Source of the DNA: Bacilli bacterium
Lineage (GTDB): Bacteria; Bacillota_I; Bacilli_A; ML615J-28; CAG-313
Assembly (NCBI GenBank): GCA_045589955.1
Contig: JAZNQD010000009.1
Coordinates: 184,876 to 248,875 of the forward strand
Direction of reading: 5' to 3'
DNA length: 64,000 nucleotides
Made by a program: the position numbers and the translations under genes. This document shows, piece after piece, positions 30,381 through 60,170 of this stretch. The notes beneath the pieces were generated by a model that worked only from the letters and a program-made list of their open reading frames with translations, ran no database searches and was not told the origin of the DNA. Position 1 is the first letter of the stretch; each line of letters starts with the position of its first letter.

Positions 30381-30453
30381 AATATTAGATAAAACGTATA
30401 ACTATTTTTCTAGAACAGCAATCATAAAATGGAAAATAAATAAAATTTTAATT

Positions 30454-30481
30454 AGTAGAAAATAAAGCGTTTATTATTCTA
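30454..30481 (+). promoter_or_regulatory. AGTAGAA-N-ATTCTA dyad upstream of glyA
   Basis: TAGAA-N16-TTCTA. Confidence 0.55.
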
Positions 30482-30511: not shown

Positions 30512-31900
30512 ATGATTGACATAAACATACAAAAAATTTTAGGTGAAGAAGTAGAACGCTTAAACCGTGATATTGAATTGATTGCTTCTGAAAATTATCC
30601 TTCTCAAGATATATTAGATTTAATGGGTTCACATTTTTCTGTTAAATATTCAGAAGGTTTTCCATTGTCAGTTTCTAAACAAGGTAGACATTATGCCGGC
30701 TGTGAAATAATTGATAAACTAGAAGAATATGCGATTGAGAATGCTTGTAAACTGTTTAAATGTAAGTATGCCAATGTTCAGCCTTGGTCTGGTTCACAAG
30801 CTAATTTGGCAGTATATGCAGGATTATTACTACCAGGTGATAAAATTTTAGGTATGGATTTAAATGCGGGTGGTCATTTAACACATGGTTCGAAAGCTTC
30901 TGATTCAAGTAAAGAATATATTGCGTATTACTATGGATTAGATAAAGATGGTTATTTAAATTATGACGAAATAAGAGATAAATTATATGAATGCAAACCG
31001 TCATTATTGATTGTAGGGGCAAGTGCTTATTCGCGAATTATTGACTTTGAAAGAATTAGAAGTCTTGTTGATGATTATAATCAGTCAGTATATTATGATT
31101 GCGGTGGTTCAAATAATCCCGATGCACCTACTAAATCTTGTTATTTAATGGTTGATATGGCTCATATTGCAGGATTAGTAGCGGCTGGAGTCCATCCATC
31201 ACCATTACCTTATGCAGATGTAGTTACTTCTACAACTCATAAAACATTAAGAGGTCCAAGAGGTGGTTTAATATTATGGAATGATGAAAAACTTTGTACA
31301 AAATTAAATAGTGGTGTATTTCCTAAAACACAAGGTGGAAGTAATCAAGCTGCCATTGCTGCTAAATGTCAATGTTTTATAGAAGCTCAACAACCTAGTT
31401 TTAGAAAATATGCAAAACAAATATTAAAAAATATGCAAGCACTTATGGAAGGTATTAAAAGTGCAGATACTGAAAATTTAATTGATTTTGTGTCTAAAGG
31501 TTCCGATAATCACCTTGTTTTATTAGATATTAAAAAAGTAGGCATTTATGGTAAAGAAGCCGAAGATAGATTAACTTCATATGGAATTATCTGTAATAAA
31601 AATATGATAGCAGGTGATACAAAACCTTCAGAATGTACAGGAATTCGTATTGGTACCGCAGCAATTACTACACGTGGATTTGATGAAGAAATGTGTTACG
31701 AACTCGGTAGAATAATTACTAAAATCTTAACTAATCCTAATTGTGATGAAAAGTCTAAAGAAGGTGTAATTGATTTAGAGCCTATTTCTATTAAAGTAAA
31801 ATTATCTAAAATGTTAGACCGAATTGGATCTTTTTATAAATCATCACTTGTAAATACTTATGTTGACACAGATTCTGATACACCAGATGATTTAGCGTAA
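30512..31900 (+). CDS. glyA: Serine hydroxymethyltransferase
   Basis: LIASENY, YSEG...Y.GCE, GGHLTHG, DMAHIAGLV, STTHKTLRGPRGG (PLP Lys), GIRIGTAAITTRG. Confidence 0.97.
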   Translation: MIDINIQKILGEEVERLNRDIELIASENYPSQDILDLMGSHFSVKYSEGFPLSVSKQGRHYAGCEIIDKLEEYAIENACKLFKCKYANVQPWSGSQANLAVYAGLLLPGDKILGMDLNAGGHLTHGSKASDSSKEYIAYYYGLDKDGYLNYDEIRDKLYECKPSLLIVGASAYSRIIDFERIRSLVDDYNQSVYYDCGGSNNPDAPTKSCYLMVDMAHIAGLVAAGVHPSPLPYADVVTSTTHKTLRGPRGGLILWNDEKLCTKLNSGVFPKTQGGSNQAAIAAKCQCFIEAQQPSFRKYAKQILKNMQALMEGIKSADTENLIDFVSKGSDNHLVLLDIKKVGIYGKEAEDRLTSYGIICNKNMIAGDTKPSECTGIRIGTAAITTRGFDEEMCYELGRIITKILTNPNCDEKSKEGVIDLEPISIKVKLSKMLDRIGSFYKSSLVNTYVDTDSDTPDDLA

Positions 31901-31982
31901 ATTCTGTTTTACTTTTTTATAAACATACGCTATTTACCGATCATAGCCAATTAAATAGTCAGATGAAAGGATATAAAAATAA

Positions 31983-32567
31983 ATGTTGGGATTTCCTGGA
32001 GTTATACATAGAGATAAAAACGGTAATGAAAGAATGATTGATTTACCCACACGTTTGCTCTGTGATAGAATTGTTATGGTAACAGGTGAAGTAACAGATG
32101 AATTAGCAGAGTCAGTTGTAGCACAATTACTTTACTTAGAGTCAGTTGATAAAGATAAACCAATTAATATGTTTGTTATGGGACCAGGTGGAGTAGTTAC
32201 TGCTGGATTTGCAATTATTTCTACAATGAATACTATTAAATGTCCAGTATATACTACTATTATAGGTCAAGTTGCTAGTATGTCATCCGTTATTGCAGCA
32301 TCTGGTGAAAAAGGTCATAGAAAAATTTATCCATTATCACGAGTAATGTTACATCAAGTATCTGGTGGTTATAGAGGTAATGTTCAAGATGCTAGAGTTA
32401 ATTATAAAGAAATGGAAAGAATTAATGATTTAGCAATGGAACATTTGGCAAAATGTTGTGGAAAAGATTTAGAAACATTAAAAGCAGATTGTGAAAGAGA
32501 CGCTTGGTTTTCTTCTGAAGAAATAGTTGCCTATGGTATGGTTGACAAAATAACTGAGCCAAGATAA
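31983..32567 (+). CDS. clpP: ATP-dependent Clp protease proteolytic subunit
   Basis: SVVAQLLYLE, GQVASM (catalytic Ser), MLHQ (His), ERD (Asp). Confidence 0.92.
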   Translation: MLGFPGVIHRDKNGNERMIDLPTRLLCDRIVMVTGEVTDELAESVVAQLLYLESVDKDKPINMFVMGPGGVVTAGFAIISTMNTIKCPVYTTIIGQVASMSSVIAASGEKGHRKIYPLSRVMLHQVSGGYRGNVQDARVNYKEMERINDLAMEHLAKCCGKDLETLKADCERDAWFSSEEIVAYGMVDKITEPR

Positions 32568-32575
32568 TTTAAAAT

Positions 32576-32604
32576 AAAGGGGATATAAAAATATCTCCTT
32601 TTTA
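32576..32604 (+). terminator. Intrinsic terminator after clpP
   Basis: AAAGGGGATAT-AAAA-ATATCTCCTTT plus T-run. Confidence 0.65.
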
Positions 32605-32607
32605 TTT

Positions 32608-32635
32608 AGTAGAAAATACAAATCTTTATATTCTA
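32608..32635 (+). promoter_or_regulatory. AGTAGAA-N-ATTCTA dyad upstream of recA
   Basis: TAGAA-N16-TTCTA. Confidence 0.55.
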
Positions 32636-32666
32636 TAAAATAGTTTCTTACAAAGAGAGGTTAATA

Positions 32667-33761
32667 ATGGCTAAAAAAGAAGAAGATTCACAATTAGATA
32701 AAGATATGAAAGCAGCATTGGCACTAATTACAAAACAATTTGGAGATGATGCTTTAATGACTTTTGATGATGCAAGTATTAAAAAGGTTGATACTATTTC
32801 AACAGGTTCACTTAATCTTGATGTTGCTCTGGGTGTAGGTGGTTTACCGGAAGGAAGAATTAATACTATTTATGGTGAAGCTTCGAGTGGTAAATCTACT
32901 ATTGCTTTACAGTTAGTTGCAAATGCTCAGAAAAAAGGATATTTATGTGCATATTTAGATTCAGAACATGCTGTTGATTTAGGATATGCAAAAGCTTTAG
33001 GTGTAGATTTAAAACACTTATTATTTGCTCAGCCTGAATCCGGTACGGTTTGTTTTTCGATTGCGGAAACATTATTAAAGCAAGGTAAAGTTAAACTTAT
33101 TGTATTTGATTCAGTTTCAACAATGTTATCTGATTCTGAAATTAATGGTGAAATGGGTGGTAACTTTATTGGACGTCAAGCCAAAATGATGTCAGATGGT
33201 TTAAAACGTATTACTCCATTAGCCGCAAAATCAAATTGTATGTGTTTCTTTATTTCTCAGACTCGTAAAAACATTGGTGTAATGTATGGTGATACCGATG
33301 TAATGAGCGGTGGTGAATCATTAAAATTTTATTCTTCGGTTATTATGAAAATTTGGAAAAAACAAAGCCCTACCACGGAGAAATTAAATGGTGAAGACAT
33401 CGCAACCTCAGTTGAAACTACTGTCAAAGTTGTTAAAAATAAAGTTGCTCCTCCTTTCCGTACGGCTAAGTTTATTATTCGCTATGGTAAAGGTATCTCT
33501 CAAGAAGAAGAAATATTAGATTTGGCATTTAAATTTGGTCTTCTTGAAAAAGCAGGAAGTTGGGTAAAATATAAAGGTGAAAATATTGCCCAAGGTAAAG
33601 AAAAGGCTATGGTATGGTTAAAAGAAGATCCAGAACGTATGGAACATTTTAAACAAACCGTGCTTGAGTATATTACCAATAAAAGTGAAGAAATGGATCT
33701 TGTTTCTGATGAGGAAGAGGAATTAGAATATGATCCAGTAACCGGTGAAATTTTAGAATAA
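32667..33761 (+). CDS. recA: RecA/UvsX recombinase
   Basis: ISTGSLNLDVALG.GGLP.GR, GEASSGKST, LIVFDSV, GGESLKFYSS, KNKVAPPF. Confidence 0.95.
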   Translation: MAKKEEDSQLDKDMKAALALITKQFGDDALMTFDDASIKKVDTISTGSLNLDVALGVGGLPEGRINTIYGEASSGKSTIALQLVANAQKKGYLCAYLDSEHAVDLGYAKALGVDLKHLLFAQPESGTVCFSIAETLLKQGKVKLIVFDSVSTMLSDSEINGEMGGNFIGRQAKMMSDGLKRITPLAAKSNCMCFFISQTRKNIGVMYGDTDVMSGGESLKFYSSVIMKIWKKQSPTTEKLNGEDIATSVETTVKVVKNKVAPPFRTAKFIIRYGKGISQEEEILDLAFKFGLLEKAGSWVKYKGENIAQGKEKAMVWLKEDPERMEHFKQTVLEYITNKSEEMDLVSDEEEELEYDPVTGEILE

Positions 33762-34122: not shown

Positions 34123-34368
34123 ATGTCAGAAATCGGTGGAATTGATAACGCTCGTTTGAAATCTTTGATTGAACGTATCGAACGCTTGGAAGAAGAAAAA
34201 AAAGGCGTTGGTAATGATATTAAAGATATTTATGCCGAAGCTAAATCAGCAGGTTTCGATGTAAAAGCTTTACGCCATGTTATTAAACAACGTGCAAAAG
34301 CTAAAAACGAAAGAGATGAAGAAAGACACATTTTTGCTCTTTATGAAGCGGCCGCTGGATTAGAATAA
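34123..34368 (+). CDS. gapR: GapR/DUF2312 nucleoid-associated protein
   Basis: LKSLIERIERLEEEKK...DIKDIYAEAKSAGFDVKALRHVIKQR. Confidence 0.9.
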   Translation: MSEIGGIDNARLKSLIERIERLEEEKKGVGNDIKDIYAEAKSAGFDVKALRHVIKQRAKAKNERDEERHIFALYEAAAGLE

Positions 34369-34462: not shown

Positions 34463-37400
34463 ATGAGTATATTTGCAGAATCTAAAGTTTTTTTAAGTAG
34501 AAGCAAATCAGATTATATCAGTCAAAACTGTCCAACTTTGATTTTGATAGCTAAGGAACCGCTCGAACGTGATAGAATGGAAATTCTTGATTCTCCACAA
34601 GGGCGTACTTACTTATCTGAATGCTTTAAAAGTAAGTATAAAGCAAGTACCACTCATATTACCTATATTAAAGATGCCGTTTCTAATTTTAGTTCAACAA
34701 TTCTACCTGAAATTTTAGCTGTATATACTGAACGATTAGGATTAAATTGTGAACAAGTTGTATTAGGCTTTATTGGACAAGAAGCTTTAGATACTTTTGA
34801 GACTGAAATTGATACTGGATATAATCCTTCTCAAATGTGTGATTATATCTTAGATAAAACGAATAAAGTCATTAGATATTCAGACCAACGTGTTACAGGT
34901 AGGTTTAGAAAAAGCATACCTTATACAGTTTTACCGGGTTTAAATGAGGCTTCTACATTAACGGCTGCTTTAAATGATATTGAGATAACTGGTTTACAGA
35001 TTGAATCTCCTTATTGTAGTACAGGTGAAATTATCAATAAATTTAATCAAATAATTGAATTATATGAAAATTCTTTTATTAAAGGCTTTTGTTTTGACTT
35101 TAAATTTAATGAAGTATCAAATAGAGTTGATTATTTTACAGTATTTGATAGCTTAACTAATGAAACATTATCTTATTGCAAAAATGATATACTTTGTGAA
35201 AATGATTCAGCACAGTTAAGAGAAGAATATGTCAATACTTTTAAAAATCTGTTAAAAAAGGTACCTGTATATAGTAATGATTTAGATATGACTAAAAAGG
35301 CATTGTCTTTGTGTCGATTTGATTTTGAAATATCCTATATTGACAAAGAAACTGGAAATACTTGCTTAGATAAATCATTTGTAATAACTGGTGATGCCAA
35401 TGGTACAGTATCAGAGTGGTATGATAATTGGAATAAAAAAGTTTTTCCAACATTAGGCTTAAAAAAGACCTCAGAAGAAGCCAAACGTTTAGGTTATTCC
35501 GATGATGTTAAATATGAATGGATATACGATATTGAGGTATTTAAACATGATTGGCTATTCGTTGCTAAATCTATGGATGGAAAGAGTAAAGTAATTTGTT
35601 GGAATGATCCTTATTCGTTACGAGATTGGATTAAAAACAAAATTTTAATTGGATTTAATAACGCAGCATACGACGATGATGTAATTAAGTATGCTATGTC
35701 TCTTCCTTATATAGATACAAAAAATCTTAAAGGACCGGTTAAATCTGTTAAAGAATATTCAGATATGTTAATTAATGATGAAGGTAAAGGTTATAGACCA
35801 AAGACAATAGGCTATAAAAATCCACCATTTTTATCATGGGACGTTAGTTTTCATATGCCATTTGATATTAGACGAAATTCATTGAAAAAATTAACAATGT
35901 CTGTATTAAATCGAAAAAATTATGATTCGTCTGTACCTTTTACAATTGAAACTAAATTAACGCCTTCTCAACGCTTAGATGTTGAAAAGTATTGCGAAAT
36001 GGACGTGGACAATACTCGTGATTTATTCTTACCAGATCCAGCCGATGTAGAAGCACAAAAAGAAAATCCTAAGCATAAGTTTAGAGAATTTGCAAGAGAT
36101 TCATATGATATTCGTTGGAATTTGATTATTGAATATAATATGACACCAAAAACTCTTATCAATAAAGCTTCTTCGTTTGCAGGAAAAGTATTATGTGGTG
36201 AGGATGCTAAACCTAATTCAGAATATACTTTTAAAATTGTAGATGGAAAAAAACAATATTATTCCATACCAGAACAAGCTCTTACTGAGTTGGCTGGTTC
36301 GCCTGTATTACAATTCTATCTTGATAATCAAAGTAATAGAGATTATATTCATGAAAAATTTGAATATTATTTAGGTGGTGATGACGACGGACATAAATAT
36401 CAATTTGGTTTTGGAGGTTTACACCAAGCACTTTTAGGTTATGGTTCAACTAATTTAGTAAACATGGACGTGGCTTCTCTATACCCATCTTTATTAGTGC
36501 AATATAATTTAATGTCACGAGGTGCTAAAAATCCAGAGTCATATAAAGAAGTGTACGAGACAAGATTGGCTGCAAAACGTGAAGGTAAAACATTACTTAA
36601 TTTAGGTCTTAAGCTTATTTTAAACGGTTCCATTGGTGCTATGTTGTCAGAATATAATCCATTATATGATACATGGTCTAATTCATCAATTTGTGTACAT
36701 GGTCAGTTATTGTTATTTATATTGGTTAAACGTTTATATGATGCTGGCTTTAATATCGTACAAACAAACACTGATGGTATTATGATAGAAAGACAAGCAG
36801 ATGTTGATTTTATGCCTATTTGTAAACAATGGGAAGAAGATTCTAGACTAGTTTTAGAGTATGATGAAATTGATATTTTACAACAAAACAATGTGAATAA
36901 CTACTATTGTAAATTTACAAATGGAAAAGTTAAATCTAAAGGCTTTTATCTATCAAATGAAAAATTTGGTAAAGCAACTTCAAAGATTTTATGTAATATA
37001 GTGACTAATAAACCAGCTCTTGAGGGTACTGAGCCTAGAGATTATGTAATTTATAAAAAGCATAGTATAGGTGAGATTTATGACGGCATAACACGTGAAA
37101 AATTAGAAGGTAGAAGTTTAGCTTTTGTTGTTGGATATGCTGATGATCCGCGTACTCAATCTTATTACAGTAGAAGTAAAAATGAACGAGAAGTGGTAGT
37201 AAAAGATGAAAGAGGTAAGCCAGTTTTAGATGAATCTGGACAAGCTGTTACAACTATAGTAAATACAGAGAGTAAAATCACAGGTTTTACAGATAATATG
37301 TTATTAGTAGACGATGTGAATACTTTAACTATGGAAGAGATCAATACTCGTGAATATATCAACTTTGCTAAAAACTTATTGAATCAGGTTGAAGATTTTG

Positions 37401-38116
37401 GTCCATATTATGATGTTGGTTTTGTAAAGTCCGAAGAGCCTACATATTTACAAGCATTGAATCCATTAAAAGATAACACAGATCCTCATCCTACAAAAAG
37501 TGGTGTTATATGTCAAAACTTCTTATTTGAATGTGATTATGCGACTAAAGAAGAACAAGAAGAGTTAATTGAGGCTTGTAAAGATAAATTATATAGAGTA
37601 GTTTGGTCAGGTAACAAATCATATCACTGCGTAGTTAGATTAGATGCTCCTGTTACATCTACAAATTATAAAAAAGTTTGGTATTATTTGAAATATAAAT
37701 TAGGTTTTGTAGGTGCAGATGAACAATGCTCTATCCCTTCAAAATATACGCGTGTACCAGATCAAATTAATCCTAAGACTGGTAATATGCAAGTTTTATA
37801 CAGCGAAGATAAAAATGTACTAAGTAAAGCTGAAATATTAGAAGCTATGCCAAAACTAAAAGATGAAATTAAACCAATAACAAGCTATAAAGGTCAAGTA
37901 ACATTAAAAGCTTTGGAAAGACATATTAAACGTCAAGATTGGGGTGAAGGTAATCGTTTTAGTGCGGTTCAAAAATTAAGTCCTATTTTAATTTCACAGG
38001 TAGAGTATGAAACTTTGTTGGGCATGATACCTGTTAAATTAGATAAAGACCATAAGCGTGTAATACGAGCAAAATATTTTTATTGGGAAAAATACAAAGA
38101 TGAAAGTGGAGAATAA
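34463..38116 (+). CDS. Family B DNA polymerase fused to a C-terminal AEP primase/PriCT domain; N-terminal extension possibly UDG-like
   Basis: Exonuclease YDIEVF and IGFNNAAYD; pol motifs DVASLYPS, KLILNGSIG and NTDG; AEP-like FLFECD, SGNKSYH and D...TRVP. Confidence 0.8.
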   Translation: MSIFAESKVFLSRSKSDYISQNCPTLILIAKEPLERDRMEILDSPQGRTYLSECFKSKYKASTTHITYIKDAVSNFSSTILPEILAVYTERLGLNCEQVVLGFIGQEALDTFETEIDTGYNPSQMCDYILDKTNKVIRYSDQRVTGRFRKSIPYTVLPGLNEASTLTAALNDIEITGLQIESPYCSTGEIINKFNQIIELYENSFIKGFCFDFKFNEVSNRVDYFTVFDSLTNETLSYCKNDILCENDSAQLREEYVNTFKNLLKKVPVYSNDLDMTKKALSLCRFDFEISYIDKETGNTCLDKSFVITGDANGTVSEWYDNWNKKVFPTLGLKKTSEEAKRLGYSDDVKYEWIYDIEVFKHDWLFVAKSMDGKSKVICWNDPYSLRDWIKNKILIGFNNAAYDDDVIKYAMSLPYIDTKNLKGPVKSVKEYSDMLINDEGKGYRPKTIGYKNPPFLSWDVSFHMPFDIRRNSLKKLTMSVLNRKNYDSSVPFTIETKLTPSQRLDVEKYCEMDVDNTRDLFLPDPADVEAQKENPKHKFREFARDSYDIRWNLIIEYNMTPKTLINKASSFAGKVLCGEDAKPNSEYTFKIVDGKKQYYSIPEQALTELAGSPVLQFYLDNQSNRDYIHEKFEYYLGGDDDGHKYQFGFGGLHQALLGYGSTNLVNMDVASLYPSLLVQYNLMSRGAKNPESYKEVYETRLAAKREGKTLLNLGLKLILNGSIGAMLSEYNPLYDTWSNSSICVHGQLLLFILVKRLYDAGFNIVQTNTDGIMIERQADVDFMPICKQWEEDSRLVLEYDEIDILQQNNVNNYYCKFTNGKVKSKGFYLSNEKFGKATSKILCNIVTNKPALEGTEPRDYVIYKKHSIGEIYDGITREKLEGRSLAFVVGYADDPRTQSYYSRSKNEREVVVKDERGKPVLDESGQAVTTIVNTESKITGFTDNMLLVDDVNTLTMEEINTREYINFAKNLLNQVEDFGPYYDVGFVKSEEPTYLQALNPLKDNTDPHPTKSGVICQNFLFECDYATKEEQEELIEACKDKLYRVVWSGNKSYHCVVRLDAPVTSTNYKKVWYYLKYKLGFVGADEQCSIPSKYTRVPDQINPKTGNMQVLYSEDKNVLSKAEILEAMPKLKDEIKPITSYKGQVTLKALERHIKRQDWGEGNRFSAVQKLSPILISQVEYETLLGMIPVKLDKDHKRVIRAKYFYWEKYKDESGE

Positions 38117-38118
38117 TT

Positions 38119-38739
38119 ATGTCTAAAGATTGGACTGGAAATACATCTATATATGCATGTAATCATCGTACAAAAGAATCTGAAGTAGCTGAAAATGATT
38201 TTTACGCGACTCACCCCGAATCAACACAATTATTTCTTAAAAAATGTAAAGAAAGAAATTTTGAATTACCGAAAAAAATTTGGGAATGTGCAGTGGGACA
38301 AGGACATATTGCTAAAGAATTGACAGCAATTGGACATGATGTATTAGGTACCGATTTAGTAGACAGAGGTTATGGTGAAGGTGGTGTAGATTTTTTAAGT
38401 CTTACAAAAGATACTTTACCAGAAACTTATAAGCCTTATCTAAAATGTATATTTACAAATCCTCCTTATGCTAATGCTAAAATTTTTGTAGAGAAAGCTT
38501 TAGAATTGTTGGATTCTGATGGTATTTGTATTATGTTTTTGAAAACTACTTTTTTAGAAACAAAAGGCCGTTTAGATTTATTCAAAAATAGAAAACTTAA
38601 ATATGTTTGGCAATATGTAAATAGACAAGGCTGTGGAAAAAACGGTGGCACTTTTAAAAATGGAGGAGCTGCTGCCTATGCTATGTTTATATGGGACAAT
38701 TCTTATAATGGTTTGCCAGAAATAGATTGGATAGAATAA
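38119..38739 (+). CDS. DNA amino-methyltransferase (N6-A or N4-C)
   Basis: IWECAVGQGHI (SAM-binding motif I) and FTNPPY (motif IV). Confidence 0.85.
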   Translation: MSKDWTGNTSIYACNHRTKESEVAENDFYATHPESTQLFLKKCKERNFELPKKIWECAVGQGHIAKELTAIGHDVLGTDLVDRGYGEGGVDFLSLTKDTLPETYKPYLKCIFTNPPYANAKIFVEKALELLDSDGICIMFLKTTFLETKGRLDLFKNRKLKYVWQYVNRQGCGKNGGTFKNGGAAAYAMFIWDNSYNGLPEIDWIE

Positions 38740-38755
38740 ATAGAAAAAATAATTT

Positions 38756-38783
38756 AGTAGAATAGATATTATCGGCTATTCTA
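38756..38783 (+). promoter_or_regulatory. AGTAGAA-N-ATTCTA dyad upstream of dut
   Basis: TAGAA-N16-TTCTA. Confidence 0.55.
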
Positions 38784-38819
38784 TAAGTAGTATGTAATAA
38801 AAAGAGAGGAAATATTAAA

Positions 38820-39329
38820 ATGCAATATACTAAAACACGTGATGTAAAAGATATTACTGGCAATAGAGATGAAGATGCTGGTTTTGACTTTTTTGTTCCT
38901 AATGATTGGAATGAAGGCAAACCATATTATCTTCGTTTGGGTGAGCAAGTTAATATTCCATCAGGTATTAAAATTAAATTAAAAAATACCCAGATGATGA
39001 AAATGGATAACAAATCAGGTGTATCTTTGAAAAAAGGTACTGTATATGGTGCAACTATTATCGATGCAGGTTATAGAGGCGAAATTCACATTAATTTATT
39101 TAAGGTGGTTTGTGGCAAAGAAGATATTCGTATTCGTCGTCGTGGATTTCTTGGTTTACTCGGATTTAAAGAATGGGCAGCTGTAATTAACCCTGGTGAA
39201 AAGATCATTCAAGGTATTATTCACACTATTTCAAATGAGCAAGCACAATTCGTATCTGAAAAAGATTATGAAAAAGGTCCAAAAACAAAAAGACAAGCTG
39301 GTGCATTTGGAAGTACAGGTACTAAATAA
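38820..39329 (+). CDS. dut: Trimeric dUTPase
   Basis: DAGFD, NKSG, IDAGYRGEI, RQAGAFGSTG. Confidence 0.85.
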   Translation: MQYTKTRDVKDITGNRDEDAGFDFFVPNDWNEGKPYYLRLGEQVNIPSGIKIKLKNTQMMKMDNKSGVSLKKGTVYGATIIDAGYRGEIHINLFKVVCGKEDIRIRRRGFLGLLGFKEWAAVINPGEKIIQGIIHTISNEQAQFVSEKDYEKGPKTKRQAGAFGSTGTK

Positions 39330-39340
39330 TATATGAGTGT

Positions 39341-39377
39341 AAGGTCACATCGTCTTATGCTTTGTGACCTTTTCTTT
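39341..39377 (+). terminator. Probable terminator after dut
   Basis: AAGGTCACA/TGTGACCTT stem plus T-run. Confidence 0.5.
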
Positions 39378-39388
39378 GATTTTTTACA

Positions 39389-39769
39389 ATGGGGATTAAA
39401 ATGGCTACTAGAAAAAAAGAATATAAGGAAGTTGTTGGTAAAAAAGATTTATCTGTAGGTATGAAGTGGGACACGGGTAAATTAGATTATTCATTGTTGC
39501 CTTGGGAAGTAATTGAAGCGGCGGTAAAACGTTTTACTGTGGGTAGTGCTAAATATGGTCCAAACAATTGGCAAAAATTGGATAATGCACAAGCTCGTTA
39601 TGAAGCAGCGATGTTAAGACATTGGGTAGAGTATAAGAAAGGTAATCGTTGGGATGAAGATCCTAATTTTGAAAATACACCTTCTACTCACTTACAAGCA
39701 GCTTTATGGAATATGATGTGTTTAGTTTGGTTTGAATTACAAGATATTGAAAAAGAAAAACCAGAATAA
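39389..39769 (+). CDS. DUF5664-like dNTP diphosphohydrolase (all-alpha NTP-PPase)
   Basis: KWDTGKLDYSLLP...GSAKYGPNNW...AAMLRH...HLQAALWN. Confidence 0.8.
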   Translation: MGIKMATRKKEYKEVVGKKDLSVGMKWDTGKLDYSLLPWEVIEAAVKRFTVGSAKYGPNNWQKLDNAQARYEAAMLRHWVEYKKGNRWDEDPNFENTPSTHLQAALWNMMCLVWFELQDIEKEKPE

Positions 39770-39846
39770 ATAAATATTGTTTTACTTTTTTACCTTTGTA
39801 CAATATATATTATATAGTTATGTATAATTGAAGGTATTGTATAACC

Positions 39847-40512
39847 ATGATAAAAAGCCAAGAAGCATTTGAACAACATATTGATTTTAGTGGATTGCTT
39901 GAATTTTGTAAAAGTGGAACAGATGTAGATTCATTGTTGCATTTACATAATTCATTACAAGTTTCTATTGAAGTTAAAAAAGATACACCAAATCATGTTT
40001 TTGAAGTAATCCATTTTACTAGACAATGGTTAGATTTAGAAACTTGGGTAGGTGCTGATCCAAATCGTATTTTAATATATGCCACACATAATCAACAAAT
40101 CGATAGAAATGTAAATATTCGTGCTTCAGAGTGTATCGTGAGAAGAGTACAAAGAGCCGGTTTTGCTATGCCTGAATTTAATGGTAAAAGATTATACGAT
40201 GTCATTCAAGATTTAAGCAAACTAGAATCATTATATAAGTACAGAGTAGAAGTAGTATATCCTAATTTAAATAAATGTTTCTGTGTTGTAAAAAATTGGC
40301 ATGTTTGTGGTAAATGGGTAATCGACACATACAATCCAACGTATCAAGATATAGAGACATTGCGTGAAGCTGAAGATTACATTTTAGAAAGATGGAATGG
40401 AAAGGCTAATGGTGAGTATATAAATCGGAGTAATCGATATATCATTTCACGTAAACTAAAAGGTAGTGAAAATTCCAAGTGGGAAGTCGTAAAACAAATG
40501 ACTTGGGCATAA
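39847..40512 (+). CDS. Hypothetical protein, PD-(D/E)xK-like N-terminal domain
   Basis: IDFSGL...TDVD...SIEVK. Confidence 0.35.
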   Translation: MIKSQEAFEQHIDFSGLLEFCKSGTDVDSLLHLHNSLQVSIEVKKDTPNHVFEVIHFTRQWLDLETWVGADPNRILIYATHNQQIDRNVNIRASECIVRRVQRAGFAMPEFNGKRLYDVIQDLSKLESLYKYRVEVVYPNLNKCFCVVKNWHVCGKWVIDTYNPTYQDIETLREAEDYILERWNGKANGEYINRSNRYIISRKLKGSENSKWEVVKQMTWA

Positions 40513-40534
40513 AATTATATAAAGGAAAAAATAT

Positions 40535-41410
40535 ATGAATACATATGACAATCAATATTTAGATTTAGTTGAAGATATTTTAAATAATGGCGAAGTAAAT
40601 CCTTGCAGAACAGGTAATAATACATTAGTTAAATTAAATCGTGTTTTAACACATGACCTAGCAGAAGGTTTTCCTATTTTAACTTTTAGACCACTTCCAT
40701 TTAAAGGCTGTAGAGTTGAATTGGAATGCTTTTTAATGGGTAATACTGATAAAAAATATTATCAAGATAGAGGTTGTCAATATTGGAATTCTTGGGCTAA
40801 TCCAAAAATAGCCGATCCAAAAGATAAAGAAGCTCAGCTTAAGGAACGTGATTTGGGTCCAATTTATGGTTATCAATGGGTTGCGTTTAATGCTCCATAT
40901 GAGAGATATGATGTAGATAATAAACATTTGGGTATTAATCAAATTAAACGTGTTGTTGATACTTTAAAAGTAAATCCATACGATAGAAGATTAATTGTAA
41001 ATGCTTGGAATCCATCTCAAGAAGATCAAATGGCTTTACCGCCTTGTGTATATGTATTTCAATTTAATTATGTAGGCGGACGTTTACATATCACTGTAAA
41101 TCAACGTTCTTGTGATTTAATTTTAGGTGTACCTACTGATTTTCAATTTTATAGTTTATTGTTACATTTAATGGCTCAAACTGTTGGTATGGTACCCGGT
41201 ACAGTTACTTTAAATCTTTGTAATTGTCATATTTATGATAATCACGTTGAATTGGTAAAAGATAACTTAATGAAATGGAGAAAAGAACAGTTTGATTTAC
41301 CAAATTTGATTTTAGAGCCTGAAGCTAATGTATTTAATTTTAGATATGAAATGGCAAAATTAGATAACTATCAGCATGGTGATAAAGTAACTTTTCCAAT
41401 TGCGGTATAA
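40535..41410 (+). CDS. thyA: Thymidylate synthase-family enzyme with a dCMP-type specificity residue
   Basis: RTG, EL, DRRLIVNAWN, LPPC, QRSCD, HIY and C-terminal IAV; but GVPTD replaces GxPFN and PCV replaces PCH. Confidence 0.85.
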   Translation: MNTYDNQYLDLVEDILNNGEVNPCRTGNNTLVKLNRVLTHDLAEGFPILTFRPLPFKGCRVELECFLMGNTDKKYYQDRGCQYWNSWANPKIADPKDKEAQLKERDLGPIYGYQWVAFNAPYERYDVDNKHLGINQIKRVVDTLKVNPYDRRLIVNAWNPSQEDQMALPPCVYVFQFNYVGGRLHITVNQRSCDLILGVPTDFQFYSLLLHLMAQTVGMVPGTVTLNLCNCHIYDNHVELVKDNLMKWRKEQFDLPNLILEPEANVFNFRYEMAKLDNYQHGDKVTFPIAV

Positions 41411-41423
41411 GGAGTAAATTTTA

Positions 41424-42128
41424 ATGGAAATAACCACTTTTGATTGTGTTCGCTGGTTTAGAAAAAGTATGCCTTATGAGCAAGTGGAACTTTTTAAATG
41501 TAGACCTTTAAGAATAAGACCTGAAAATCAAATATATAAGTGTACTAAAGGTTATAACGTTAAATTAGATGAAGCAGATGCAAAAAAGATTTTAGCTTCA
41601 GAATCAGATAATCAAAGTAGAGAAATTAATTGTGAATCAAAACCTGTTGCATTACTTTCGGTATATTCTGTTGCTCGATTCTTACAGTCAAGTTTAAATA
41701 AAAAATTGACACCATATGATACAAAGGAATCTTTTGTGATTGTTTGTCGAGATGGTGAATGGTGTAATTATAACGAAATTAAATTTGTTTCAATTGAAGA
41801 CTCAGAATTAATTACAGATGATTCCGCCGCTGATAAAAAGGCAAAAGAAAAAGTAAAAATACAACACAGTACAGCTCTAATGTTAAAATCCATTCTTGGT
41901 CCATTAGTAGATGGCTTATGTGAAAAATATGGTTTAGTTCGTAAAGATGAATCTATTTATTTCAGAGATTCCAAAGCAATAAAAGCTGCTCTTCAAAGTT
42001 ATTTAGATAATACTATTATAACGGATCTGAAAGAAAATGGCTTTACAATAAAGCTTAATAATAGGTATCAAAAGATTGATAAATATACTAGACTGTTTGA
42101 TATCATTGATGTAATTCCAGAGGAGTAA
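41424..42128 (+). CDS. Hypothetical protein
   Basis: ORF with GGAG RBS. Confidence 0.55.
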   Translation: MEITTFDCVRWFRKSMPYEQVELFKCRPLRIRPENQIYKCTKGYNVKLDEADAKKILASESDNQSREINCESKPVALLSVYSVARFLQSSLNKKLTPYDTKESFVIVCRDGEWCNYNEIKFVSIEDSELITDDSAADKKAKEKVKIQHSTALMLKSILGPLVDGLCEKYGLVRKDESIYFRDSKAIKAALQSYLDNTIITDLKENGFTIKLNNRYQKIDKYTRLFDIIDVIPEE

Positions 42129-45359: not shown

Positions 45360-45872
45360 ATGTATACTGTGCCATTAGAGGAATCTTGGCTTGATTATCC
45401 TTCACCAGATGGAAATGCTGTAGCAGTCATTTTAACAGGCTGTGAGCATCATTGTGTTGGCTGTCATAGTGTAGGTCTACAAAAAGTAAAAACCTATGCT
45501 GAGGAGCCAAAAAAACTAACTTTACGAATTAAAGAATTTTGTAAACGTGCATGCACTAATAAAATAGTTTTACTTGGTGGAGATCCGCTTTTATGCTCTA
45601 ATCTAGGTATTACCCGTTATCTTGTTGATAATTTGTCAAGTGAATATGATATTTGTATTTATACTGGTTATGATATCGAGTATGTTAAAAAATTACAAAT
45701 TACCGGTGTAAAATACTTTAAATGTGGTAAATATTTAAAAGAATTTAGTAGAGATTCACAAAAGACAGATTCAAGCTTTATATTAGCGAGTTCAAATCAA
45801 GATTTTTATGATGGTAACTATAATAAATTATCTAACAATGGAATATTAAATTTTAAAAATAGCGAGGAATAG
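45360..45872 (+). CDS. nrdG: Anaerobic RNR activating radical SAM protein
   Basis: GCEHHCVGCHS (CxxxCxxC), GGDP; adjacent to nrdD. Confidence 0.88.
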   Translation: MYTVPLEESWLDYPSPDGNAVAVILTGCEHHCVGCHSVGLQKVKTYAEEPKKLTLRIKEFCKRACTNKIVLLGGDPLLCSNLGITRYLVDNLSSEYDICIYTGYDIEYVKKLQITGVKYFKCGKYLKEFSRDSQKTDSSFILASSNQDFYDGNYNKLSNNGILNFKNSEE

Positions 45873-45877
45873 TAACA

Positions 45878-48025
45878 ATGAGTCAAGACAAAAAAGCGAT
45901 TTCAATTAAATATCCAAAATTTAATTATATGGAAGAAAACCCATATCAAGAAGAAATGGATAAATTGATTGATATTAGTCTTTCAGAGGCGAATACAACC
46001 CGAACACAAAAAAATATCGCCGAGTGTTTAACAAAATCAATTAAATCTAAATATGGTGTTAAGGATAAAGAAGAACTAAAAAGCAAAGTAGAAGATATCT
46101 TAGCATTACATGGATTATCACAAAAACATTTTGACCCATTATCTACAATTTCTACTTTAACCTTTGGTAATTTACAAACAGTTAATGATATTTCAGTTGA
46201 TGACAATGCAAACAAAACTTCTACTAATATGGAAGGTATTCAAGGTGAGGCATTTTTATCTTATAAAAAATTAGCTGGATATGATTATTTATATCAAACA
46301 TTAAAAGAATTATATGGTAAAAATGAAGCTAAAAAATGTATGGCTTCTATGTTTGATTTTTCATTAGCTTTAAACGATAGTACAAAAATTTTAGTACCAT
46401 ATTGTTATTGTATTGATGCTTCTAAAATTGTAATGGAAGGTCGTAATTTTGGTCAAGTACATTCTAGTCCAGCTCATCGTGTAGCTACTTATATTTCTGT
46501 ACTTGGTGATACAATTAGAGAAATTTCATTTAATGTTGCCGGAGCCATTGCTGTTGGTACATTTTTCTTAGATATTGCACATTTGGCTATTTATAGAGAA
46601 AGAATTACATTAGATGATTTGCGTACCGATAAGAAAGTACGTAAAGCTATGTCAAATCACTTACAACAATTTATTCATACTGTTAACCATTACTCGAGAA
46701 ATTCAGTAGAATCACCTTTCACTAACGTTTCTTGCTTTGATAGAGATAAGTTACGTGGTTTAATTGATGAAGATAACTATGATTGGTATTTCCAAAAGAA
46801 AGCTGCTATCGTAGAAGATAATAACTTAGAAAATACAAAAGAAGCATTTAAAGAATTCGTTTTAGATTATATCGAAGAATTACAACAAATGTATATTGAT
46901 ATCTTTAATGAAGGCGATCCATTGCGTAACGGTTTACAATTCCCATTCCCTGTAACTACTATTAATTTAAGTATTGATATTAATAAAGAAACAGGTGAAC
47001 GCAAATTAACTACTGAAAATAATAATCTTTTGAATTATATTGTTAAAAAAGATATTTCACGTTTTAATATCTATTGTTCAGAAGGTACTAAAGTTGCATC
47101 TTGTTGTCGTTTAATCTCTGATGCTGAAATGTTAGAATTAGGTGAAGGTGTTAACTCATTCGGTGGTTCACAAGTTTCATTAGGTTCACATCGTGTAGTT
47201 ACAATTAACTTTGCTCGTGCTGCTTATGAAGCTGAATCATATGACGACTTTAAATCAATCATTACAGACCGTGTTGAAGAGATGGCTAAAATTCTTAAAG
47301 CACACCGTGTATTGATTCATAAGTTAGAAGCATGTGGTACTCAACCTTGGATTACTAACGGTTGGATTAATATGTCTCATATGTTCTCTACATTTGGTTG
47401 TTGTGGTTATGTAGAAGCAGACGAAATTTTAAAATCTAAGTTTAATCATGCTACATTTGATTACATGAAAGACTTTTTGGTATACTTTAACGAAGAATGT
47501 AAGCGTTTAGCTAAAGAAGAAAATATTGTAATGAATATCGAAGCAATTCCGGCTGAAGGCATGGCACCAAAATTGGCTAAGGCTGATAAAATTTTGGTAG
47601 AAGGTACTTATGATATTTATGCTAACCAATGGTGTTCTTTGTGGAAAGATTATACTATTTATGAAAAGATGAAAAGAGACGGTGAAATCAATGCCCTCAT
47701 GACCGGTGGTAGTATTGTACATATCAATATTGATTCACACGTTACTTCTTCTCAAGCAAAGAATTTAATCTCTGATGCTATTAAATATGGTATGGCTCAC
47801 TTCGCATTAAATGCTGTATATGCAGAATGTGCAGAGTGTGGTCATGTACATAAAGGCAAAGTTGAAAAATGTCCTAAATGTGGATCAGAAAAAGTTTCTT
47901 ATTTGACACGTGTTATTGGCTATTTCAGTCGTGTGGCTGGATGGAATAAAACTCGTCGTGAGAAAGATTTTGCTAATAGAAAATTCCTCAATTATAATCA
48001 AATCAAAGACCAGCTTGATAGTTAA
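45878..48025 (+). CDS. nrdD: Class III anaerobic ribonucleotide reductase (SCCR subtype, no obvious ATP cone)
   Basis: ASCCRL finger loop, C-terminal CxxC...CxxC and TRVIGYF glycyl-radical motif. Confidence 0.92.
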   Translation: MSQDKKAISIKYPKFNYMEENPYQEEMDKLIDISLSEANTTRTQKNIAECLTKSIKSKYGVKDKEELKSKVEDILALHGLSQKHFDPLSTISTLTFGNLQTVNDISVDDNANKTSTNMEGIQGEAFLSYKKLAGYDYLYQTLKELYGKNEAKKCMASMFDFSLALNDSTKILVPYCYCIDASKIVMEGRNFGQVHSSPAHRVATYISVLGDTIREISFNVAGAIAVGTFFLDIAHLAIYRERITLDDLRTDKKVRKAMSNHLQQFIHTVNHYSRNSVESPFTNVSCFDRDKLRGLIDEDNYDWYFQKKAAIVEDNNLENTKEAFKEFVLDYIEELQQMYIDIFNEGDPLRNGLQFPFPVTTINLSIDINKETGERKLTTENNNLLNYIVKKDISRFNIYCSEGTKVASCCRLISDAEMLELGEGVNSFGGSQVSLGSHRVVTINFARAAYEAESYDDFKSIITDRVEEMAKILKAHRVLIHKLEACGTQPWITNGWINMSHMFSTFGCCGYVEADEILKSKFNHATFDYMKDFLVYFNEECKRLAKEENIVMNIEAIPAEGMAPKLAKADKILVEGTYDIYANQWCSLWKDYTIYEKMKRDGEINALMTGGSIVHINIDSHVTSSQAKNLISDAIKYGMAHFALNAVYAECAECGHVHKGKVEKCPKCGSEKVSYLTRVIGYFSRVAGWNKTRREKDFANRKFLNYNQIKDQLDS

Positions 48026-49511: not shown

Positions 49512-49964
49512 TTAGTCTATAGTATAAATTTTAGGCTTTTTTTCTTCTGGAATTTCAATTTTAATATTGATTTGTAAAAGACCATTAAAATAGTTTACTT
49601 TATCTATCACTGAAAATTCTGGAAGTTTTAAACTCCATTTGAAACTTCTGCTAGCTATACCTTTATAAAGATAATCTCTCTCTGGAGTACCAGCCGTAAT
49701 ATCTTCTACATATAGCACGTTATCTTCAGTTGATACTTTTAAGCCCTCTTTAGGATAACCAGCTAAGCTTAATTCTACTGTAAATTCATCAGTAGTATCT
49801 TTGTCTTTACGATAAATATTATATTTTGGAAATGACTCTTGACGCTCTACTAAATTTAAAGGTAAAGCATTTGAAAAGAAAGCGTCGATAAAAGGTGAAA
49901 ATTGTGAGTCAATAATGCGAGAAAGTGAACCGCGCATCAACGGTGAAAGTTGCTTATTTGTCAT
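49512..49964 (-). CDS. Small heat-shock protein (IbpA-like Hsp20)
   Basis: FPKYNI, ELSLAG, YLYKGIASRSF, NGLL.I, IPEEKKP. Confidence 0.92.
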   Translation of the reverse strand: MTNKQLSPLMRGSLSRIIDSQFSPFIDAFFSNALPLNLVERQESFPKYNIYRKDKDTTDEFTVELSLAGYPKEGLKVSTEDNVLYVEDITAGTPERDYLYKGIASRSFKWSLKLPEFSVIDKVNYFNGLLQINIKIEIPEEKKPKIYTID

Positions 49965-52726: not shown

Positions 52727-53719
52727 TCAAAGATCATCAGTATTTATAATAAAGTTTACATTAAATTTAGGTAAAGTTTTAAATGGTTCGTTATATGGTA
52801 TATATCCACAAGAATTTATAATATATCGAGTTTTGTTTTTACCGATTTTAAAATCTTTTCTACAATGTACGTGTCCAGAAAAAACCAATCTAATATTTGG
52901 CATAGTATCAATCCATTTTTCTAAACTTGATACATAACTAGCATTGGAGATACTATCTTTATAGGTATCTTCTATACATTTTCCTGATAAACAATGATGT
53001 GTCATTAAAATTATTTTTGCGGTAGGATTTATTTTTAAGATTTCAGCATAGCACTCTTGTACTTTATTTTTAGCCAACTTGTTTAATTTTAAATAGGTTT
53101 CTGGTGATAAACGCATATATTCGGTTTCATGACCCCATTTAAAGTCATTCAAACGTTCAGATGCTAATAATAAATTTTCACGTATTAAACGTTGCTTTGT
53201 TAAGCGTTTGATTGGTTTAGTTTCAGTATTTCCATAACCCCAAGCATCTAATACATTTGCCCAACGTAAATTATAAGCATTATATGTTTTGGTAGTAAAT
53301 GTTTTATACTCATAATCTGTATAAAAAGTGCTTCCTATTACAGCTACACTATTATCGGTACCTGGAATCCACATCCAATTATTTTCTAAATAATGATGAA
53401 AAAGATGTGTTTCTGGAAATTCTTGCCTTAATTCATCTTTTAACTGATAAATTGTTTTGCCTTCGTGGTTATATACCAAATGATTACCGTCTATAAAGAA
53501 AACAGTTTTCTCTTGAAAAAATCCTTCTAAAAAGGCCTTAGTTTGTGTTAAACTAGCAGCTAAATCACCGGCGATTAAAGTGATACAATCAGGCTCATTA
53601 TTTAAGGCTTTACTAAAATAATGACCAAATGGAGTATGTGTTATACCCTTCTTTTTAGAAGTGTCTCCGTTTATACCATCATCAAAATGAGTATCGCTAA
53701 TTAAACGTAACTTAACCAT
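52727..53719 (-). CDS. Calcineurin-like metallophosphoesterase
   Basis: SDTHFD, AGD, GNH, THH, GHVH. Confidence 0.88.
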   Translation of the reverse strand: MVKLRLISDTHFDDGINGDTSKKKGITHTPFGHYFSKALNNEPDCITLIAGDLAASLTQTKAFLEGFFQEKTVFFIDGNHLVYNHEGKTIYQLKDELRQEFPETHLFHHYLENNWMWIPGTDNSVAVIGSTFYTDYEYKTFTTKTYNAYNLRWANVLDAWGYGNTETKPIKRLTKQRLIRENLLLASERLNDFKWGHETEYMRLSPETYLKLNKLAKNKVQECYAEILKINPTAKIILMTHHCLSGKCIEDTYKDSISNASYVSSLEKWIDTMPNIRLVFSGHVHCRKDFKIGKNKTRYIINSCGYIPYNEPFKTLPKFNVNFIINTDDL

Positions 53720-54143
53720 GTTTAATTAAATCCAATATTTGTGCAATATCCTGACGTGTTAAAGCTGGAGCTTCTCCAAAGTTATTTGCTAATTTTTCTA
53801 AGCGATGAATTAAAAGAGAAGCTCGAAATAATTTTTCTTCTAAGTCAGCTTTTTGTACACGTATAGCATCACAATAACCAGCTTCATAGGCAGGATGCTC
53901 GGATAAATTATCATCATCTATAAAATTATCTACGTATACTTGACGTATCTCATTTCGATCGACCATTACACTTGAAATATAAGCGCTTACTGTTGTTAAT
54001 CTTCCTTTTGCTTTTTTCAATAAATTAGTAAAAGCTTCTACATCAGCACTATCACTAAATAGTTCCGCTAAGTTTAAAATATTATTATCAGTAATTCGTA
54101 AGGTTACTTCATCTGTATCAGATACATCTACGCAAACAGACAT
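53712..54143 (-). CDS. Hypothetical protein
   Basis: Coupled ORF. Confidence 0.5.
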   Translation of the reverse strand: MSVCVDVSDTDEVTLRITDNNILNLAELFSDSADVEAFTNLLKKAKGRLTTVSAYISSVMVDRNEIRQVYVDNFIDDDNLSEHPAYEAGYCDAIRVQKADLEEKLFRASLLIHRLEKLANNFGEAPALTRQDIAQILDLIKHG

Positions 54144-54346
54144 TATATCTTCCTTTTCAATTTTTTCTTGTTTTGACGTCTTTCAATAGCCTTTTGTACA
54201 CGGCGTTGTTGATGATTTAAACGTTTAAAAGTTTTTGTTTCGCCGATTTCTCGAATTTCGGTTACTTTACCGTTTTCATCAAATTTCATGCCAAACAATT
54301 CAGCCAAAGAAGGAGCAATTGTTTCTATATTATCAGTATTTTCCAT
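54143..54346 (-). CDS. Hypothetical protein
   Basis: Coupled ORF with a basic C-terminus. Confidence 0.45.
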   Translation of the reverse strand: MENTDNIETIAPSLAELFGMKFDENGKVTEIREIGETKTFKRLNHQQRRVQKAIERRQNKKKLKRKI

Positions 54347-54349
54347 ATA

Positions 54350-54754
54350 TTAATCCTCAGGTGTCACTTGTGTAAAGTTTTTGTGTTTTGGTTTTAAGAC
54401 TACTATTTCATCATCAGCGATTGTGTTATCAGTAAACGGACTCCACATCAATTGATTAAAACTAGCGATAACGTGTAGTTTTTGTTCTTTGTACATTTTT
54501 GACCATTTATTTTTGGTATATACAAGATTATTAGTTAAAAAGGCGTTGATTTTTTGAATTGTACAATTATTAGCCCTAACGTTTTTATAATCATACTTTT
54601 TGTTTTCATTCTCCGCACGCAATTCTTCTAGCACAGTAGTTATACCTAAAACTTTAAACAAATCTTCATAAAATAATATACGTTTATTTTTCATTACTTC
54701 ATCTGTTATTTTAAAAGATACTGTTTTTTTACTAAATAAATTTTTAAAGAACAT
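54350..54754 (-). CDS. Hypothetical protein
   Basis: Coupled ORF. Confidence 0.45.
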   Translation of the reverse strand: MFFKNLFSKKTVSFKITDEVMKNKRILFYEDLFKVLGITTVLEELRAENENKKYDYKNVRANNCTIQKINAFLTNNLVYTKNKWSKMYKEQKLHVIASFNQLMWSPFTDNTIADDEIVVLKPKHKNFTQVTPED

Positions 54755-55991: not shown

Positions 55992-56000
55992 GCTTACCTC

Positions 56001-60100: not shown

Positions 60101-60170
60101 TATTCATTCCTTTTTGCTTTACTTTATTAAATATATAATATATACTTTTTTTATAAAAGTAAAACAATAA

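Follow-up and report, generated by a model that had tools for sequence, protein, structure and literature searches.

The window analyzed here, a stretch of 64,000 nucleotides from contig JAZNQD010000009.1 (positions 184,876 to 248,875), carries a gene for a thymidylate synthase (TS) homolog that, judged from its sequence, is quite likely a natural deoxycytidine monophosphate (dCMP) methylase on a near-canonical TS scaffold. In the preferred reading, to which a probability of about 0.6 was assigned, this protein would serve in a complete pathway as a folate-dependent dCMP C5-methyltransferase, with its product 5-methyl-dCMP (5mdCMP) entering phage DNA and being converted in part to deoxythymidine monophosphate (dTMP). 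The phage thus probably builds 5-methylcytosine (5mC) into its DNA.

The TS homolog matched Pfam PF00303 (Thymidylat_synt) over its full length (residues 6-291, E 5.4e-78) and solved TS structures with E 6.5e-54 at about 36-40% identity. Its AlphaFold 2 (AF2) model had a mean predicted confidence (pLDDT) of 94.7, and Foldseek gave template modeling (TM) scores of about 0.9 to the full-length TS of human, mouse and E. coli. Profile, fold, the catalytic Cys and the phosphate-binding Arg residues (R21/R126'/R127'/R166) therefore place the protein in the thymidylate synthase superfamily. Equivalents of R21, E58, W80, W83, Y94, R126, R127, C146, R166, S167, D169, H207 and Y209 of E. coli ThyA are kept, and the elements that close the active site are present, i.e., D194 (Asp169), W84, W87 and the C-terminal tail F287-P-I-A-V291. 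The loop at the position of Ser94-x-Tyr96 of the T4 enzyme reads G-P-I-Y-G-Y and is TS-like. Two residues of canonical ThyA, Asn177 and His147, are replaced by Asp202 and Val172. In the alignments with TS structures, QRSCDLILGVPTDFQFY falls on QRSADVFLGVPFNIASY, which puts Asp202 at the position of Asn177. An earlier note on this stretch had described a ThyA homolog with this Asp (codon 41138-41140) and with PCH changed to PCV, and both statements proved exact by alignment and codon coordinates. The catalytic Cys, the Arg pair, the loop Trp residues and the C-terminal IAV, which it had listed as retained, were likewise seen in the alignment. The protein scored 214.8 bits against the NCBIfam thymidylate synthase equivalog TIGR03284 (cut-off 108), and GenBank DAG09647.1, a homolog with at least 90% identity, is deposited as 'Thymidylate synthase'. 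Public pipelines systematically mis-name Asp177 variants as plain 'thymidylate synthase'.

The residue at position 177 sets the pyrimidine substrate, Asn177 going with deoxyuridine monophosphate (dUMP) and Asp177 with dCMP (PMC8670742, PMC13326640). The mutants N177D of E. coli ThyA and N229D of L. casei TS switched to dCMP (Hardy & Nalivaika 1992 and Liu & Santi 1992, as cited in PMC8670742). In the MetaGPA analysis, positions 177 and 147 best discriminated the TS homologs of cytosine-modified viral contigs, which have Asp177, from those of unmodified contigs (PMC8670742). With regard to the product, Leu143 correlates with methyl and Asp/Glu143 with hydroxymethyl, since hydrophobic bulk at this position keeps water out and permits hydride transfer (PMC13326640, PMC6400193). 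The ternary complex of T4 dCMP hydroxymethylase provided a hydroxymethylase signature, namely Asp/Glu three residues before the catalytic Cys and a water-holding Ser-x-Tyr pair (PMC6400193); the T4 enzyme also has Val for Trp83 and is without the TS C-terminal tail (PMC6400193; also PMC5175136). According to a 2026 paper, D169N marks flavin-dependent 5-hydroxy-dCMP synthases (PMC13326640). The window protein has the residues of the dCMP-methylase class, i.e., Asp177, Leu143 (Leu168), Asp169, Trp80/Trp83 and the C-terminal tail. For such proteins, a 2024 preprint reported that five of seven predicted metagenomic TS homologs made 5mdCMP in E. coli, with the enzyme of phage Xp12 as positive control, and that the linked 'dCMP deaminases' favour 5mC, converting 5mdCMP to dTMP (bioRxiv 10.1101/2024.12.05.627091).

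The 120 closest homologs (55-99% identity) were aligned with E. coli ThyA, and a later clade alignment comprised 122 sequences. Asp177 was present in all 120 closest homologs and in 122/122 sequences of the larger alignment, and position 147 was never His (L in 102, V in 11, M in 6, I in 2). Therefore, Asp202 is no chance or sequencing oddity. Leu143 and Asp169 were each found in 122/122 sequences; L168, which corresponds to E. coli Leu143 and lies three residues before Cys171, was invariant together with P169, P170 and C171, as were R21, E58, W80, Y94, R126, R127, C146, R166, S167, D169, H207 and Y209, while W83 was Phe in two members. The C-terminus read ..PIAV/I in the members that align to the end, the alignment being gapped there for about 20-30 members. 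Since Asp177, Leu143, Asp169 and the TS tail are clade-wide, dCMP methylation was predicted from the published, partly validated residue rules, in line with the proposal of the earlier note that the enzyme acts on dCMP and methylates rather than hydroxymethylates it.

In an exhaustive search of 1.84 billion cluster representatives, one was found at 56% identity and the next at no more than 45%, and because of this drop the clade is regarded as compact. Among the other 149 representatives, 124 had Asn177 (119 of these with His147) and 21 had Asp177. The latter fell into about 15 separate groups of a rough neighbour-joining tree, which was crude and unsupported; thus, the Asn-to-Asp switch looks recurrent in the TS family.

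The genes near the TS homolog and other genes of nucleotide metabolism in the window are listed in Table 1. Family matches agreed with the earlier note on the neighbours (NPPY methyltransferase, dUTPase, DUF5664 and two unassigned open reading frames (ORFs)) as well as on serine hydroxymethyltransferase (SHMT), thymidine kinase (TK) and dCMP deaminase. Down to 57% identity, relatives kept the order polymerase, usually methyltransferase, dUTPase-like gene, a variable slot, sometimes the gene of the 221-aa protein, and TS homolog. The methyltransferase stands beside the polymerase in most relatives, with copies 53-99% identical in the loci L001, L006, L007, L010, L011 and L004. In all relatives compared, the dUTPase-like gene precedes the TS homolog, and the dUTPase-like product, when aligned with PDB entries, retained motifs III-V, with Lys for the Arg of motif II and an insertion. 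Trimeric Dut-family enzymes can change specificity (PMC12884076), and by analogy this divergent protein is a speculative candidate for removing deoxycytidine triphosphate (dCTP), as speculative as DUF5664.

The variable slot holds DUF5664 in the window and in L001, L002, L006, L008 and L009, and a T4 gp1-like deoxynucleoside monophosphate (dNMP) kinase, which passes the Pfam PF21448 cut-off, in L004 (6365-6994), L007 (8065-8700), L010 (2754-3392) and L011. In pattern scans of IMG/VR, the near-complete contigs (227-237 kb) that had one of these genes were in no case those that had the other; as far as scans of such limited sensitivity can tell, the two appear to exclude each other. The slot enzymes act in opposite directions, DUF5664 from deoxynucleoside triphosphate (dNTP) to dNMP and the kinase from dNMP to the diphosphate (dNDP). 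For a non-canonical dNMP to reach the dNTP pool, a phage requires such a dedicated kinase beside the modifying enzyme; T4 uses gp1 for this step, and the published assays took the same course. The DUF5664 protein had no PDB match by sequence.

Part of the lineage (L001, L006, L002 and L007) has a homolog of the 221-aa protein, 30-93% identical, in the same place immediately before the TS homolog. For the 221-aa protein, a word-indexed homolog search returned one relative at 90% identity, and the AF2 model was unusable (pLDDT 44). For the 234-aa protein downstream, relatives were no more than weak and partial (27-35% identity) and did not share a fixed position; it is probably outside the core module. 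Family searches with divergent syntenic copies of both proteins (from L002, L006, L007, L010 and L004) gave no match.

Table 1. Coordinates of the TS homolog, its key codons, its neighbours and further nucleotide-metabolism genes in the window
Feature	Position	Strand	Basis
Thymidine kinase, dTMP salvage	21958-22542	-	PF00265 E 3.9e-35
Serine hydroxymethyltransferase, regenerates methylene-tetrahydrofolate	30512-31900	+	PF00464 E 1.9e-121
DNA methyltransferase, NPPY motif, probably N6-adenine	38119-38739	+	phrog_799 E 1.8e-48; weak Dam and phage_N6A_met matches
Divergent trimeric dUTPase-family enzyme, 169 aa	38820-39329	+	PF00692 E 4.5e-9; phrog_135 E 6e-22
DUF5664 all-alpha dNTP diphosphohydrolase homolog, 126 aa	39389-39769	+	PF18909 E 1.9e-23, 82.7 bits vs cut-off 27; phrog_801
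221-aa protein without family match, directly upstream of TS homolog	39847-40512	+	no Pfam, PHROG or NCBIfam match
TS-family enzyme, predicted dCMP C5-methyltransferase (5-methyl-dCMP synthase), 291 aa	40535-41410	+	PF00303, TS structures, AF2 model, Leu143/Val147/Asp169/Asp177
Codons of catalytic Cys171 and Val172 (TGT GTA; E. coli Cys146-His147)	41045-41050	+	alignment
GAT codon of Asp202 (E. coli ThyA Asn177, pyrimidine-specificity residue)	41138-41140	+	TS-structure alignment; Asp in 121/121 clade members
234-aa protein without family match, downstream of TS homolog	41424-42128	+	no Pfam, PHROG or NCBIfam match
NrdG and NrdD (anaerobic ribonucleotide reductase activase and catalytic subunit), dNTP precursors, same plus-strand block	45360-48025	+	PF13353/PF04055; PF13597 E 8.7e-71
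dCMP deaminase family enzyme, 149 aa; candidate for 5mdCMP to dTMP or dCMP to dUMP	60171-60620	+	HAE...PCxxC motif; PF00383 E 1e-19

The deaminase-family protein matched human DCTD with E 4.5e-19 and was 29% identical to the Xp12 deaminase. The 5mC preference of such deaminases is polyphyletic and not readable from sequence (bioRxiv 10.1101/2024.12.05.627091). The Pfam scan of window ORFs, which outside annotated genes covered all those of at least 134 aa, gave no second ThyA, no ThyX and no dihydrofolate reductase (DHFR). When the search for a dNMP kinase, DHFR or further TS was extended outward from the window ends, one terminal protein was matched only on short contigs that stop before the window does, and the other had no record. 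A Z-genome (PurZ) role of the DUF5664 gene was considered and dropped because the scanned window ORFs included none resembling adenylosuccinate synthetase.

In the proposed pathway, the pyrimidine pocket would have been switched from dUMP to dCMP, with the one-carbon transfer of TS and the subsequent hydride transfer kept, and the TS homolog would belong to an early, co-oriented block of replication and nucleotide-metabolism genes. Methylation of dCMP would draw on methylene-tetrahydrofolate, which the phage SHMT would help to regenerate, dihydrofolate presumably being reduced by the host. The resulting 5mdCMP would be phosphorylated by the T4 gp1-like dNMP kinase encoded in the cluster of some relatives or by host kinases, and after incorporation by the phage polymerase 5mC would replace much or all of the cytosine in virion DNA. 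As in Xp12-type phages, the phage-encoded dCMP-deaminase homolog would turn part of the 5mdCMP into dTMP, which would help to feed a genome of ~70% A+T. Directly observed were the sequence signature with its clade-wide conservation, the TS fold and the gene context; what the enzyme uses and makes, how much of the product reaches DNA, how far cytosine is replaced and what the dUTPase-like and DUF5664 proteins do were inferred. The earlier note had offered 5mC in DNA and conversion of 5mdCMP to dTMP as two routes; both are known to coexist in Xp12-type phages, and the dTMP route, a documented pathway in such phages, likely runs alongside the 5mC-DNA route and not instead of it.

Several observations weigh against this pathway. 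Of the seven predictions of this kind in the literature, two gave no 5mdCMP (bioRxiv 10.1101/2024.12.05.627091). The Xp12 methylase aligns with Asn, not Leu, at position 143, which reduces the Leu143 rule to a correlation. The clade shows further consistent changes in the folate/pyrimidine pocket (D20C, K48R, I79Y, F176A/T/S, residues 178-181, D205N, T206C). The deaminase gene is ~19 kb from that of the TS homolog and thus not in cis, a T4 gp1-like kinase was not found in the window by tblastn with the kinase of relatives, and no dCTP-removing enzyme was identified. The two characterised DUF5664 enzymes are reported to hydrolyse dATP, dGTP and dUTP, dCTP not being among the reported substrates (PMC12884076); the suggestion of the earlier note that DUF5664 removes a canonical dNTP is weakened, as far as a pyrimidine dNTP is meant, by these substrates and by the dNMP kinase occupying the slot in several relatives. 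Finally, the view was of 64 kb, about a quarter of a genome of ~230 kb.

Palindromes of four nucleotides were compared as observed/expected ratios under a Markov model between the window, pooled relatives (102 kb; L002, L004, L007, L008, L010) and Xp12, whose cytosine is 100% 5mC. GGCC was at 0.48 in the window, 0.60 in the relatives and 0.94 in Xp12. For CATG, the ratios were 0.57 (z -5.8), 0.71 and 0.96, and for GATC 0.58 (z -5.5), 0.90 and 0.97, respectively. GCGC was depleted in the window (0.58), but neither in the relatives (1.14) nor in Xp12 (1.11). Because a fully 5mC-containing genome should need less avoidance, this depletion argues weakly against complete replacement; it suggests that replacement is incomplete or unprotective against the relevant host enzymes, although the comparison is with a single control of very different base composition. 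The fully C-modified genome of the earlier note, in the sense of a complete and protective substitution, is therefore disfavoured to a small degree by the depletion of GGCC, CATG, GATC and GCGC.

Depletion of C-containing palindromes, as in unmodified phages, would also fit a route in which essentially all 5mdCMP is deaminated to dTMP, leaving ordinary C in the virion DNA and making dTMP for an AT-rich genome independently of host ThyA. The demand for dTTP is high at ~30% G+C, a dCMP-deaminase homolog and TK are phage-encoded, the conversion of 5mdCMP to dTMP is documented (bioRxiv 10.1101/2024.12.05.627091), and a dCTPase was not identified. This outcome was nevertheless considered unlikely, since published Asp177 TS homologs are enriched on contigs that behave as cytosine-modified, Xp12 and PaMx74 fully replace C, relatives carry the T4 gp1-like dNMP kinase beside the TS homolog, and the deaminase gene is not adjacent to it in the window. 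An ordinary TS converting dUMP to dTMP and tolerating Asp at 177, as the public-record label has it, was rated very improbable. The score above the TIGR03284 cut-off, the name of DAG09647.1, the presence of dUTPase and dCMP deaminase as the usual suppliers of dUMP and the lack of another TS in the window fit such an enzyme. However, Asn177 was found in 124/124 canonical representatives compared and Asp is invariant in the window clade; His147, present in 119/124 of them, is changed in the clade; the N177D/N229D mutations, as cited in PMC8670742, switch TS to dCMP; and natural Asp177 homologs made 5mdCMP when assayed (bioRxiv 10.1101/2024.12.05.627091).

It is also conceivable that dCMP is modified to a product other than the methyl derivative, i.e., 5-hydroxymethyl-dCMP, 5-hydroxy-dCMP or a C5 product not yet described, which neighbouring proteins might decorate further, but this was judged quite unlikely. 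A T4-type hydroxymethylase was rejected on the basis of Leu168 in place of Asp/Glu, the TS-like loop, the full C-terminal tail and the full-length TS fold, and a 5-hydroxy-dCMP synthase of the RB69 gp48 type on that of Asp169 (not Asn) and Leu143 (not Glu) in 122/122 sequences. Along with Leu three residues before the catalytic Cys and Asp169, the retained Trp83 and Tyr94, tail and fold speak against a non-methyl product, and the window yielded no glycosyltransferase, carbamoyltransferase or comparable tailoring enzyme. In its favour are changes in the cofactor pocket (I79Y, where T4 dCMP hydroxymethylase has Tyr56 at the same spot, F176A/T, D20C and D205N/T206C), the correlative nature of the residue rules and the two unannotated ORFs flanking the TS homolog; moreover, SHMT without DHFR in the window would suit a reaction that releases tetrahydrofolate. 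Rather improbable as well, taken jointly, is that pocket rebuilding (D20C, I79Y, F176A/T, 178-181, D205N/T206C) led to a non-methyl C5 product, or that DUF5664 and the gp1-like kinase are alternative means of pool control around a 5mC pathway with the dUTPase-family protein as dCTPase. If true, either reading would extend pre-replicative cytosine modification by a variant not described before, in jumbo phages of the anaerobic gut.

The G+C content was ~30% and uniform across the whole window, and its gene content was of phage type, with baseplate and tail proteins, a 1217-aa polymerase-primase, RecA, ClpP, NrdDG, an NAD-dependent ligase and RNA repair genes. Contigs with relatives of the TS homolog measured 218-263 kb, and two contigs with clade members are deposited in metagenome-assembled genomes (MAGs); therefore, the carriers are regarded as uncultured jumbo phages, sampled from gut or rumen. 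The genome of the window phage is roughly 220-245 kb in size. Cultured close relatives were not found, the best phage-database matches to the TS homolog being below 40% identity, and the polymerase was about 25-31% identical to its best-ranked matches among cultured-phage polymerases. A literature search on the lineage returned no paper. Among the contigs with clade members, L239 (JBJFGR010000097.1) is deposited in a Succinivibrionaceae MAG and L240 (JAFZWP010000001.1, 245 kb) in a 'Bacilli bacterium' MAG from water-buffalo rumen; the latter is probably a complete jumbo-phage genome binned as a bacterium.

Further features of the carrier were noted. The polymerase (34463-38116) has a primase-like C-terminal region (phrog_1252, phrog_2597) and no Pfam match. 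Cell-like genes form an unusual set for a phage, i.e., SHMT, ClpP, RecA, a GapR-like DNA-binding protein and Hsp20 (30512-33761, 34123-34368, 49512-49964); the GapR-like protein has 81 aa, and its match to Pfam PF10073 was obtained on the near-identical L001 copy. The RNA repair genes, coding for a metallophosphoesterase, a T4 Rnl1-like RNA ligase and an AAA_33 kinase, are separate in the window (52727-56480, minus strand), whereas L004 (7075-9288) encodes all three in a single 737-aa fusion protein, whose gene lies between those of the dNMP kinase and the TS homolog. A 434-aa protein with RCC1 repeats (beta-propeller; 20600-21904, minus strand) adjoins the thymidine kinase. No tRNA genes were found in the window, and promoter and terminator scans of 37.5-43.5 kb gave counts not exceeding the shuffle expectation. 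Two motifs recurred in intergenic spacers, each with 3 matches against ~0.3 expected: TTAGTAGAAWA (30452-30462, 32606-32616 and 38754-38764, plus strand) and GTTTTACTTTTTTA (31906-31919 and 39779-39792, plus strand; 60152-60165, minus strand). Located upstream of genes of the replication/nucleotide block, they may be phage promoter elements; they were picked after the spacers had been inspected.

The novelty implied by the earlier note has to be scaled back, since residue code and pathway are already published and partly validated. Interest lies in the anaerobic gut jumbo-phage lineage, an origin independent of the Xp12 enzyme and the alternation of DUF5664 and dNMP kinase. If the preferred reading is true, a widespread uncultured lineage of rumen/gut jumbo phages swaps cytosine for 5-methylcytosine before replication. 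This would bear on phage escape from, or targeting by, host restriction systems, on the behaviour of phage DNA in sequencing and methylation calling, and on the annotation of an enzyme currently labelled plain 'thymidylate synthase'. It would also offer a source of naturally tuned dCMP methylases, and possibly of 5mC-selective deaminases, as tools.

Among known systems, Xp12, with 100% 5mC in its DNA (PMC7653180), offers a close parallel: its deoxycytidylate methyltransferase (MT664984 45326-46195) combines Asp177 with non-His147, as does the window protein. Both phages encode a dCMP-deaminase homolog, and for both, pre-replicative synthesis of 5mdCMP with part going to dTMP is predicted; PaMx74 is a further 5mC phage. 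However, the window protein is only 25-27% identical to the Xp12 enzyme and closer to canonical TS (36-45%), and the Xp12 enzyme differs from it by Pro147, Asn at 143 and no alignment to the canonical C-terminal tail. In Xp12, deaminase and DHFR genes lie directly beside that of the TS homolog, whereas the window deaminase is ~19 kb off, and Xp12 is a GC-rich siphovirus of 64 kb, unlike the AT-rich, jumbo myovirus-like window phage. The Asp177 TS homologs of MetaGPA (PMC8670742; bioRxiv 10.1101/2024.12.05.627091), compared by their published description, have the diagnostic residues at 177 and 147 in common with the window protein and co-occur, as in the window, with dCMP deaminases and all-alpha NTP pyrophosphohydrolases. 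For the latter, MetaGPA has PRA-PH (PF01503) where the window has DUF5664 (PF18909), and the window deaminase is at ~19 kb rather than within 3 kb.

T4 gp42 acts on dCMP and has Asp179 at the equivalent of position 177, where the window protein also has Asp, and the T4 logic of dCTPase (gp56), gp42 and dNMP kinase (gp1) is resembled by the pool-editing hydrolase, TS homolog and gp1-like kinase in relatives. The hydroxymethylase features of gp42, i.e., Asp145 for Leu143, Val85 for Trp83, a missing C-terminal tail and release of tetrahydrofolate, are not those of the window protein. RB69 gp48 and DLP3 gp80 (PMC13326640) likewise combine Asp177 with dCMP, but have D169N and L143E, whereas the window clade has Asp169 and Leu143. 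In the engineered enzymes E. coli ThyA N177D and L. casei TS N229D, as described in the sources cited above, a single change gave a dCMP methylase, and the window protein would be the natural equivalent on a near-canonical scaffold. Beyond these single mutants, the window clade has also changed position 147 and the folate-pocket residues 20, 48, 79, 176, 178-181, 205 and 206, which may tune the enzyme.

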